DNA of 32,000 bases, taken from positions 89,703 through 121,702 of the forward strand of contig CAKUIA010000003.1 of assembly GCA_934660865.1 (NCBI GenBank), given 5' to 3'. Source of the stretch: an uncultured Opitutales bacterium. GTDB lineage: Bacteria > Verrucomicrobiota > Verrucomicrobiia > Opitutales > Intestinicryptomonadaceae. Shown here piece after piece: positions 26,925 through 27,080 of this stretch. The position numbers were made by a program, and so were the translations under genes. The number at the start of each line of letters is the position of its first letter. Position 1 is the stretch's first letter. Under the pieces are notes generated by a model. It did not search any database and had not been told where the DNA came from. It saw nothing but the letters and a program-made list of their open reading frames with translations.

Positions 26925-27080
26925 ATGAAAACTAAAATTATAAGAATAATATTTGCGTTTGTTATAACGCTTGCTTCTTTTAATGCTTTTGCCGACGATT
27001 GCGCAGGTTGCGAACCCGGAGACAAGGGTTGCAGTGGCAACCCTGGCGAAGACAATATGCCGCAACAGCTGGGCGAATAA
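26925..27080 (+). CDS. small secreted acidic Cys-containing peptide, 51 aa (absent from the ORF track)
   Basis: MKTKIIRIIFAFVITLASFNAFA/DDCAGCEPGDKGCSGNPGEDNMPQQLGE. Sec-type signal with an AxA site. The stop lies 2 nt before the next ATG. Paralogue at 30892-31041. Confidence 0.6.
   Translation: MKTKIIRIIFAFVITLASFNAFADDCAGCEPGDKGCSGNPGEDNMPQQLGE

Follow-up and report, generated by a model that had tools for sequence, protein, structure and literature searches.

The locus and its two small open reading frames

The DNA analysed here, referred to as the window, is a stretch of 32,000 nucleotides (nt) from an uncultured Opitutales bacterium (contig CAKUIA010000003.1). Two cassettes within it begin with a small open reading frame (ORF) for a pre-protein of about 50 amino acids (aa), which is followed almost immediately by the gene of a large basic protein, named A507 in the first cassette and represented by a paralog in the second. 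The small ORFs, the peptides they encode and their relation to A507 are the subject of this analysis. Coordinates are positions within the window, on the + strand unless marked.

26925–27080, +: small ORF 1, from ATG at 26925 to TAA at 27078–27080; 51 aa, MKTKIIRIIFAFVITLASFNAFA up to the predicted cleavage site and DDCAGCEPGDKGCSGNPGEDNMPQQLGE after it
26925–26993, +: predicted signal peptide of small ORF 1; the mature acidic peptide follows at 26994–27077 (28 aa, net charge −6, 3 Cys)
30892–31041, +: small ORF 2, from ATG at 30892 to TAG at 31039–31041; 49 aa, MKTKIIKIIFAFVITLASFNALA up to the predicted cleavage site and DSDACGNDKGDGDKDTQECMGSELGE after it
30892–30960, +: predicted signal peptide of small ORF 2; the mature peptide follows at 30961–31038 (26 aa, net charge −7, 2 Cys)
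27083–28606, +: A507, a basic protein (isoelectric point, pI, about 9) of 507 aa with its own signal peptide, modelled as a half-size YD/Rhs-type beta-hairpin sheet
31053–32000, +: second A507 paralog, about 46% identical to the first, which leaves the window at its end

An earlier note, made from the letters alone, had pointed out the two small ORFs, and its coordinates, lengths and cysteine counts (3 and 2) are exact. So are its gaps to the downstream genes: small ORF 1 stops 2 nt before the start codon of A507 (ATG 27083), and small ORF 2 stops 11 nt before that of the second paralog (GTG 31053), a start that is plausible but not certain. The description of the genes as unannotated stands as far as they are nameless; gene finders do call both in public assemblies, and the NCBI and ENA gene calls contain exact matches to the proteins of small ORF 1 (P0141) and small ORF 2 (P0145). 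Orthologs of the small ORF 2 peptide are P0110, P0115, P0117 and P0119. The statement that the small ORF heads each cassette holds for its position directly before A507 and fails in the related locus L014, where a gene for a 314-aa protein precedes the small ORF.

Each small ORF has its own sigma-70-type promoter. The elements upstream of the two start codons are the following.

26767–26801, +: terminator-like hairpin with a 16-bp stem and a T-run, which closes the preceding unit just 5′ of cassette 1
26853–26878, +: conserved promoter piece AAAAATATCACAAAAAGCGCTTGAC(A), the 3′ end of which is the −35 box TTGACA
30733–30761, +: terminator-like hairpin preceding cassette 2, related to the copy at 26767–26801 (family D3)
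30818–30866, +: cassette-2 promoter, composed of the conserved 25-nt piece and then TTGACT-17-TATTCT

The promoter piece AAAAATATCACAAAAAGCGCTTGAC recurs at 30818–30842 with 25/25 identical positions, against a chance expectation of 0 matches, and the cassette-2 promoter together with its 5′ untranslated region is also found in L001, L009 and L014. Most related loci carry an acgcTTGACa −35 box at a comparable distance from the ATG; in most, a TTGAC(A/T) box lies about 50–58 nt 5′ of the start codon of the small ORF. A purine-rich stretch resembling a Shine-Dalgarno (SD) sequence stands 5–9 nt before this ATG in most loci; the SD of window copy 1 is unclear.

A family of small pre-proteins

A genome scan with the A507 alignment returned 9 loci, all of them in gut Opitutales/Puniceicoccaceae (Verrucomicrobiota), comprising metagenome-assembled genomes and the isolate Marseille-Q1082. 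A homologous small ORF lies directly 5′ of the A507 homolog in 9/9 of these loci and likewise in further metagenomic loci, in keeping with the earlier note, which had proposed to look for homologs in relatives. Only in L007 (1 of 9 loci) does the small ORF contain an in-frame stop within the leader. The search of 5.8e9 proteins with the peptide profile gave 29 clusters with E-values down to 9e-23, and the exhaustive hidden Markov model scan of 1.84 billion representative proteins gave 26 clusters, all of 41–79 aa and none fused to a larger protein. Two apparent long members, P0144 and P0160, were rejected as unrelated clustering artefacts. Natural fusions of the peptide with A507 do not exist, and the long A507 homologs have C-terminal extensions or are fused to downstream genes.

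No name could be attached to the family. Both peptides and all cassette proteins lack a meaningful match in Pfam, NCBIfam, PADLOC and PHROGs, and the peptide profile, searched against the sequences of the PDB, returned 0 matches. Nothing relevant turned up in the literature, be it on Rhs in connection with small proteins encoded upstream, on the Opitutales of the gut or on the motifs of the peptides, and the supplements of the human-microbiome small-protein survey contain no sequence matching the peptides.

Since the ORFs are short, under usual gene-calling cut-offs, and their mature part is of low complexity, they might be open by chance or be a non-coding leader of the downstream gene. Against this, the reading frame is kept in more than 40 distinct sequences of 47–56 codons with synonymous variation, each of the window copies has its own promoter, most members have an SD-like stretch, and signal-peptide features are present in all of them. 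The substitution pattern was assessed with Nei-Gojobori counts over the last 23 codons, compared within core types and expressed as the ratio of nonsynonymous to synonymous changes per site (pN/pS).

W1 (small ORF 1 of the window) versus L014: 6 synonymous, 0 nonsynonymous, pN/pS 0
W1 versus L001: 4 synonymous, 0 nonsynonymous, pN/pS 0
L002 versus L010: 14.5 synonymous, 5.5 nonsynonymous, pN/pS 0.11
L003, L004 and L006, pairwise: pN/pS 0.18–0.22

As far as substitution counts can tell, these values (0–0.22, far below 1) show that purifying selection acts on the peptide within core types; the selection test suggested in the earlier note thus came out as for coding sequence. Both ORFs are almost certainly genuine genes, which belong to an undescribed family of pre-proteins of about 50 aa seen so far only in gut Opitutales, and the probability of a chance ORF or a non-coding leader is negligible.

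The family signature was read across 37 members, and the signal peptide was judged by a rule-based check. All 37 have 1–3 Lys or Arg within the first 8 residues, a hydropathy maximum of 2.3–3.4 over 12 residues and a cleavage site of the form A/S/G-x-A/S followed by D or E. Such a combination of a charged n-region, a hydrophobic h-region and small residues at −3 and −1, with no lipobox, corresponds to a type-I Sec signal peptide, the substrate of signal peptidase I. In the window, the cleavage sites read ...NAFA/DD and ...NALA/DS (the slash marks the cut), with no Cys at +1. A bacterial lipoprotein was considered and discarded, the window copies being without a Cys in or right after the signal peptide; the F-C-S found inside the h-region in other lineages is not a lipobox. 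From these features, the peptides are very probably exported after cleavage of a Sec-type signal peptide.

The predicted mature part comprises 22–33 residues (median 28) and carries a net charge of −4 to −11 (median −8) in the 37 members. Invariant in the family are one Cys, which in the inspected members precedes the C-terminal end by 22 or 23 residues, and a Met at position −7 from the C-terminus, which opens the C-terminal motif M-[PS]-x-x-[LIM]-G-E. The number of Cys varies from 1 to 4, and the single-Cys members retain the invariant one, so that an internal disulfide is impossible in these members. Several core types can be told apart. Window copy 1 belongs to the type CxxCExGDxxCGGxPxxD[NCY]M..., window copy 2 to the type ACGNDKGDGDKDTQECM..., and a Pro-rich type, DPC[ND]PxPPEPPDPxPx[DE]CM..., is devoid of the CxxC. 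The predicted mature peptide of Puniceicoccaceae Marseille-Q1082 (locus L003) reads AEDPCDPTPPEPPDPNPSDCMPIELGE. In AlphaFold (AF2) models of the peptide alone, residues 2–23 form a helix, which is the signal peptide, and the mature part is unstructured, with a predicted local distance difference test (pLDDT) score of 48–58.

The two mature parts of the window had been described in the earlier note as completely different except for a terminal LGE. They do in fact align without large gaps, and have in common the invariant Cys, a D-K-G, the Met at −7 and an ELGE tail. The codons of the C-terminal motif vary synonymously (Leu as CTG, CTT, TTG or TTA; Gly as GGC, GGT, GGG or GGA). An SD role as the cause of the conserved G-E was largely rejected on the grounds that the third base of the Gly codon varies freely.

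Exchange of the cassette head

The leader-coding DNA of the two window copies is identical at 70/73 positions, which bears out the near-identical Sec-type signal peptides reported in the earlier note. Together with the promoter piece (25/25), it forms islands of identity within cassettes that are otherwise strongly diverged, as seen in the identity of about 46% between the A507 proteins downstream. The 24 leader codons differ by 1 synonymous and 2 nonsynonymous changes, and the mature part is synonymously saturated (pS 0.81). Between species, the leaders differ freely and the core types are shared: L003 and L006 are 22% identical in the signal peptide and 85% in the mature part. Within one lineage, a single leader may head several cores, as in the case of MKTKII..., which occurs with types 1 and 3. 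Similarly, the leader MKNRFLMLML... heads both the Pro-rich type and a CxxC type. Over 105 pairwise comparisons, the Spearman correlation with A507 identity is 0.57 for the mature peptide and 0.28 for the leader, and that between leader and mature part is 0.10; the pairs are not independent, and only the ranking of these values is meaningful.

The leader is also found outside the peptide family. The sister strain L014, 96–98% identical to the window at the nucleotide level, carries at 8828–9846 (compare window 30818–30954) the promoter of the small ORFs and a leader that matches theirs at 19/23 positions on the unrelated 314-aa protein, the gene of which is inserted ahead of the small ORF and overlapped by it by 4 nt. 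A protein 93% identical to the 314-aa protein, P0163, has a wholly different leader, and the switch falls exactly at the cleavage site (...FA/IEEDKEKF). This points to the swapping of signal peptides by recombination. A further protein, P0121, is a chimera of a signal peptide of the type found in U332, a neighbouring protein described below, and the mature part of the small peptide, and L006 contains at 4122–4372 a duplicated cassette head made of the small ORF and a truncated 5′ end of A507. The contigs of the relatives L014 and L021 end at or soon after the cassette head, which fits repeat-induced assembly breaks; the head module thus appears to break metagenome assemblies at cassette loci.

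The leader shared with the 314-aa protein, along with the different cores behind one leader, suggests that the leader identity in the window arose by concerted evolution or module exchange. Judging by these sequence patterns, the near-identical window leaders are the result of gene conversion or exchange of a head module made of the promoter and the signal-peptide codons. An analogous arrangement is known from Borrelia burgdorferi, where the 'upstream homology box' ospE/ospF/elp (Erp) genes are paralogs with shared upstream-plus-leader modules. In both cases, near-identical promoters and signal-peptide codons are combined with highly divergent mature parts, an analogy that would imply recombination and co-regulation. 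The cassettes described here differ in that they belong to another organism, encode no lipoproteins, have the module at the head of operons rather than of single genes and give no sign of antigenic variation. Exchange at the cleavage-site boundary would represent a modular recombination that yields chimeric exported proteins, and it can mislead the 'conserved leader, variable core' heuristics used in the discovery of bacteriocins and of ribosomally synthesized and post-translationally modified peptides (RiPPs).

A palindrome, GCGTTTGTTATAACGC, lies within the signal-peptide codons of both window copies (26955–26970 and 30922–30937). Since L014 has it in mutated form and other lineages lack it, it is probably incidental.

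The proposed partner protein A507

The homologs of A507 fall into 94 clusters, none of them named. Its AF2 model (pLDDT 82.8) is all-beta, with about 36 strands arranged in hairpins. The top 35 Foldseek matches in the PDB are exclusively Rhs cores from type VI secretion systems (T6SS), teneurins or TcB/TcC (E 4e-11 to 1e-5), among them 7pq5, 7q97, 8qja, teneurins and TcdB2-TccC3. The template modelling (TM) scores to these structures are low (0.2–0.35) because A507, with about 475 mature residues, has about half the length of a closed cocoon, which takes about 1000 or more. The C-terminus consists of more YD-like hairpins with no added domain, and A507 has neither a plug nor a toxin domain. 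As modelled, A507 is a half-size Rhs/YD beta-sheet at the fold level.

This likeness does not extend to the sequence definitions of the repeats. RHS_repeat (PF05593) and YD_repeat (TIGR01643) give no match in the window A507 even at E ≤ 1, precomputed annotation places PF05593 in 1/94 homolog clusters, no RHS-associated-core NCBIfam matches the window protein, and reading of its C-terminus reveals no DPxGL-type autoprotease motif. The earlier description of the downstream gene as YD-repeat-like is therefore right for the fold, as judged by AlphaFold and Foldseek, and not for the sequence families.

The best-conserved stretch of A507 comprises residues ~31–55 (window 27083–27230), with the pattern QIPVGN[AS]DxNGFxRxDK and many invariant residues. 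Most of it falls within the N-terminal part that AlphaFold models as unstructured and with low confidence, and it is a candidate interaction segment.

The small ORF and A507 are tightly coupled, as the earlier note had stated. From the stop of the former to the start of the latter, the distance ranges from −4 to +17 nt, with ATGA and TAATG overlaps among the forms; the one exception is a distance of +37 nt, where A507 has its own AGGAG. RNA folding of the junction at six loci gave inconsistent structures (z −2.6 to +0.1) and no conserved hairpin that would mask the start, and Rfam returned 0 matches over 26000–32000 at E ≤ 1. The short spacing and the lack of a hairpin or an Rfam element make termination-reinitiation, with a fixed stoichiometry of the two products, the simplest explanation of the coupling. 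Every A507 examined is basic, with a net charge of +6 to +27 and a pI of 8.7–9.6, and thus opposite in charge to the peptides (−4 to −11).

Proposed role of the peptide

In the proposed mechanism, the pre-protein of about 50 aa and A507 would be made together by termination-reinitiation in a fixed proportion. Cleavage of the signal peptide would release a strongly acidic, intrinsically unstructured peptide of 22–33 residues, which after export would attach as a stoichiometric partner to the basic YD sheet. There it would serve as a cap, a plug or cargo, and its docking would rely on the invariant Cys and the conserved motif at the C-terminus. Such a complex would work alongside other exported products of the long operon, namely the variable Cys-rich proteins, the DUF1573 protein, the two alpha/beta-hydrolase-like proteins, the Wzy_C-type membrane protein, rhodanese and MauE/DoxX. 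The head module, comprising the promoter piece and the signal-peptide codons, would recently have passed from cassette to cassette, by copying or exchange through homologous recombination, with the cleavage site as the junction. The statement as a whole, namely a genuine family, an exported peptide partnering A507 and an exchanged head module, is given an even chance of being correct. That the peptide is an exported stoichiometric partner of A507 is put forward tentatively, with rather less than even confidence; it is suggested by the tight spacing, the complementary charges, the co-divergence of the mature peptide and A507, the members whose only Cys is the invariant one, and the A507 model, in which the YD sheet is open.

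Several observations weigh against such a partnership. Linkage by itself would make neighbouring genes diverge together. In the lineage of P0062, which has 76 member sequences (L017 2940–3100 and L018), the small ORF is reduced to a remnant, '...YCMSIKRGK*', with no start codon and no signal peptide, and A507 is intact; the peptide is consequently not indispensable. A disulfide between the invariant Cys of the peptide and Cys173 of A507 is unsupported, as consistent covariation is missing. Cys173 is conserved in 91% of the homologs, and no Cys of A507 is universal; of three A507 proteins without Cys173, two (P0030 and P0076) keep Cys-bearing peptides and the third is P0062 with its decayed ORF. 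Finally, the operon as a whole has no informative match in Pfam, NCBIfam, PADLOC or PHROG to a known system.

A more far-reaching version, considered rather unlikely, would see the peptide and the half-size YD sheet as a Sec-dependent 'mini-Rhs' of a new kind in gut Verrucomicrobiota, with an open or dimeric shell on the cell surface that the peptide would plug or occupy as cargo. Recombination of the head module would then reshuffle sets of peptide, shell and effector, a form of programmed diversity.

Three other roles were weighed against the exported partner. The peptide could be a diffusible product, that is, a secreted signalling peptide or a bacteriocin- or RiPP-like toxin with a constant leader and a diversifying core. 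It would share with class II bacteriocin and RiPP precursors, and with the conotoxin-like pattern, the small precursor, the N-terminal export sequence, the Cys core and the sharply distinct core types, two of which share one leader within one genome; the operons moreover contain variable Cys-rich proteins and, in L005, a weak Peptidase_C39-like protein (E 1.8e-4; 21.8 bits, under the 22-bit cut-off). The leader is, however, an ordinary type-I Sec signal, of neither the double-glycine nor the RiPP recognition kind. The window and 20+ related loci contain no radical SAM, YcaO, LanB/C/M or ABC-C39 protein, and a modification enzyme, a dedicated exporter such as a C39 ABC transporter, an immunity-like small membrane protein and a two-component sensor are likewise missing from them. 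The cores are under purifying rather than diversifying selection within types, and the C-terminal motif is conserved across species while the leaders differ. The identity of leaders, which the earlier note had read together with the variable core as a sign of signalling or bacteriocin-like peptides, is accounted for by module exchange by recombination, seen also on the 314-aa protein; a RiPP or class II bacteriocin precursor was rejected as well, since across species conservation of the mature part equals or exceeds that of the leader. With a nearly obligatory linkage to A507 in addition, a diffusible product is judged improbable. Much the same low probability is assigned to a metal or redox peptide, which would bind Ca2+, Zn2+ or Cu+, or shuttle sulfur or thiol equivalents in the periplasm, with no structural A507 partner. 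It would make use of the CxxC-x6-C of one core type, the high content of Asp and Glu, the DxDxD stretch of window copy 2 and the invariant Cys and Met as soft-metal ligands, and would suit the full-length operons, which end with rhodanese and MauE/DoxX and carry Cys-rich secreted proteins. Yet the Cys number varies from 1 to 4 and the Pro-rich type has no CxxC, and beyond one Cys and one Met the types share no chelating motif. The DxGDGDxD stretch, compared in the earlier note to a Ca-binding loop, is confined to one core type (only copy 2 and its orthologs have D-x-D-x-D-T) and is without the canonical Gly6 and Glu12 of EF-hand-like DxDxDG loops. Similarity to known metallochaperone or metallothionein families is absent, and the specific coupling to A507 would be left unexplained.

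The remaining alternative, and a slightly weaker one, is a regulatory upstream ORF, in which the peptide itself is unimportant and its translation, as a monitor of the SecM, VemP or MifM type or by plain coupling, sets the expression of the YD gene. The upstream position is invariant, with at most 17 nt, or an overlap, between the genes at nearly every locus, the ORF combines an N-terminal export signal with a C-terminal motif of seven conserved residues right before the next gene, as those monitors do, and the A507 start often has no strong SD, for which the G-E codons (GGN GAA) could offer a weak SD-like element 6–10 nt upstream. Known secretion monitors are 95–170 aa long. With 47–56 residues, on the other hand, the signal peptide would still be mostly in or near the exit tunnel when the motif is decoded, and a force sensor is implausible; the secretion-monitoring ORF raised in the earlier note is geometrically unlikely at about 50 aa. 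The stop follows directly after the motif, and the next gene is not a secretion factor, that is, no Sec or YidC component. The invariant Cys, its fixed spacing from the end and the conserved acidic composition are protein-level constraints unrelated to stalling, which a monitor leaves unexplained. In addition, the third base of the Gly codon is unconstrained, the A507 start is not masked by a conserved mRNA hairpin, Rfam shows no element, and one lineage keeps A507 without an intact ORF before it.

Relation to known systems

Among known systems, the peptide and A507 come closest to the Rhs/YD shells, which include T6SS Rhs effectors with EagR chaperones, TcB-TcC cocoons, WapA and bacterial teneurin-like proteins. 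As modelled, A507 shares with them the spiral fold of YD beta-hairpins, and here too the genes form paralogous, recombination-prone cassettes with variable downstream genes. It differs in being about half as large as a closed cocoon, in having a Sec signal peptide instead of depending on PAAR/VgrG/T6SS, the type VII secretion system or TcA, and in the lack of a toxin domain or an obvious immunity gene. To our knowledge, no Rhs system has a separately encoded acidic exported peptide of about 28 aa as its first cistron, and the literature searches were likewise empty.

Colicin E-type immunity proteins and barstar are acidic partners that are made together with basic toxins. By analogy, the small acidic polypeptide could be a partner of the basic protein with which it is co-expressed, given that the charge complementarity is family-wide. 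Compared with these proteins, the peptide is far smaller, unstructured and encoded upstream, an export signal is present on both partners, and no toxin domain is recognised in A507. Neither the peptide family nor the half-size Sec-exported YD protein has been described before; together they are best regarded as a variation on the Rhs/YD-shell theme, outside any defined family.

Little is charted of the small proteins that gut bacteria make, and the family described here offers clear motifs, a genomic partner (A507) and a single host in culture (Puniceicoccaceae Marseille-Q1082). Should the peptide turn out to be a subunit, a plug or cargo of a half-size, Sec-exported YD shell, the theme of Rhs, teneurin and Tc proteins would gain a minimal two-component form, free of a toxin domain, in a little-studied gut phylum.

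The wider operon and its neighbourhood

The genes surrounding the two cassettes are listed below.

24780–25715, +: U311, signal-peptide protein; families F5 and F4 (U311/U332) recur in the operons of L001, L006 and L009
25725–26723, +: U332, signal-peptide protein, the family of which recurs in the same operons elsewhere
28603–29028, +: B141, variable-slot gene, 141 aa, many Cys and a hydrophobic N-terminal segment
29013–30068, +: C351, variable-slot gene, 351 aa, signal peptide

The slot right after A507 is variable, and at other loci it is filled by secreted, Cys-rich proteins of 120–320 aa that are unrelated. Homologs of B141 and C351 occur only in strain-level relatives, those of B141 in L014, L015 and L021. 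B141 has no match in Pfam or NCBIfam; a cargo, an effector or an immunity protein is possible. Farther downstream, many loci encode a DUF1573 immunoglobulin-like protein, two weakly alpha/beta-hydrolase-like proteins and a Wzy_C (O-antigen-ligase-like) membrane protein, to which the operons of L023 and L017 add rhodanese and a MauE/DoxX protein. Full-length operons comprise about 14 genes (L023 2060–13652; also L017 1–500 and L008 9510–13426), and their tail is missing from cassette 1 of the window. The L023 ortholog of the second A507 paralog, P0077, stands at the head of a 14-gene operon.

After C351, about 660 nt (window 30069–30730) contain no convincing ORF, and a 52-aa ORF on the minus strand (30576–30734) matches a sequence of L009. 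This region therefore looks like the decayed remnant of a longer cassette tail. In L008 (3811–6013), two complete cassettes of peptide and YD gene with differing core types stand head-to-head on opposite strands.

Directly upstream of the cassette region, at 21592–24622, an AraC-type regulator gene (− strand) is divergent from that of a 663-aa signal-peptide protein with weak similarity to glycoside hydrolases (trehalase/GH116/MGH1-like), a pair that is syntenic in L001, L014 and L021. A tyrosine-recombinase gene of the phage integrase family (1651–2649, − strand) and a family-B DNA polymerase gene (7625–9811, + strand) sit among housekeeping genes (SDR, GpsA and YmdB) and could be the remnant of a mobile element.

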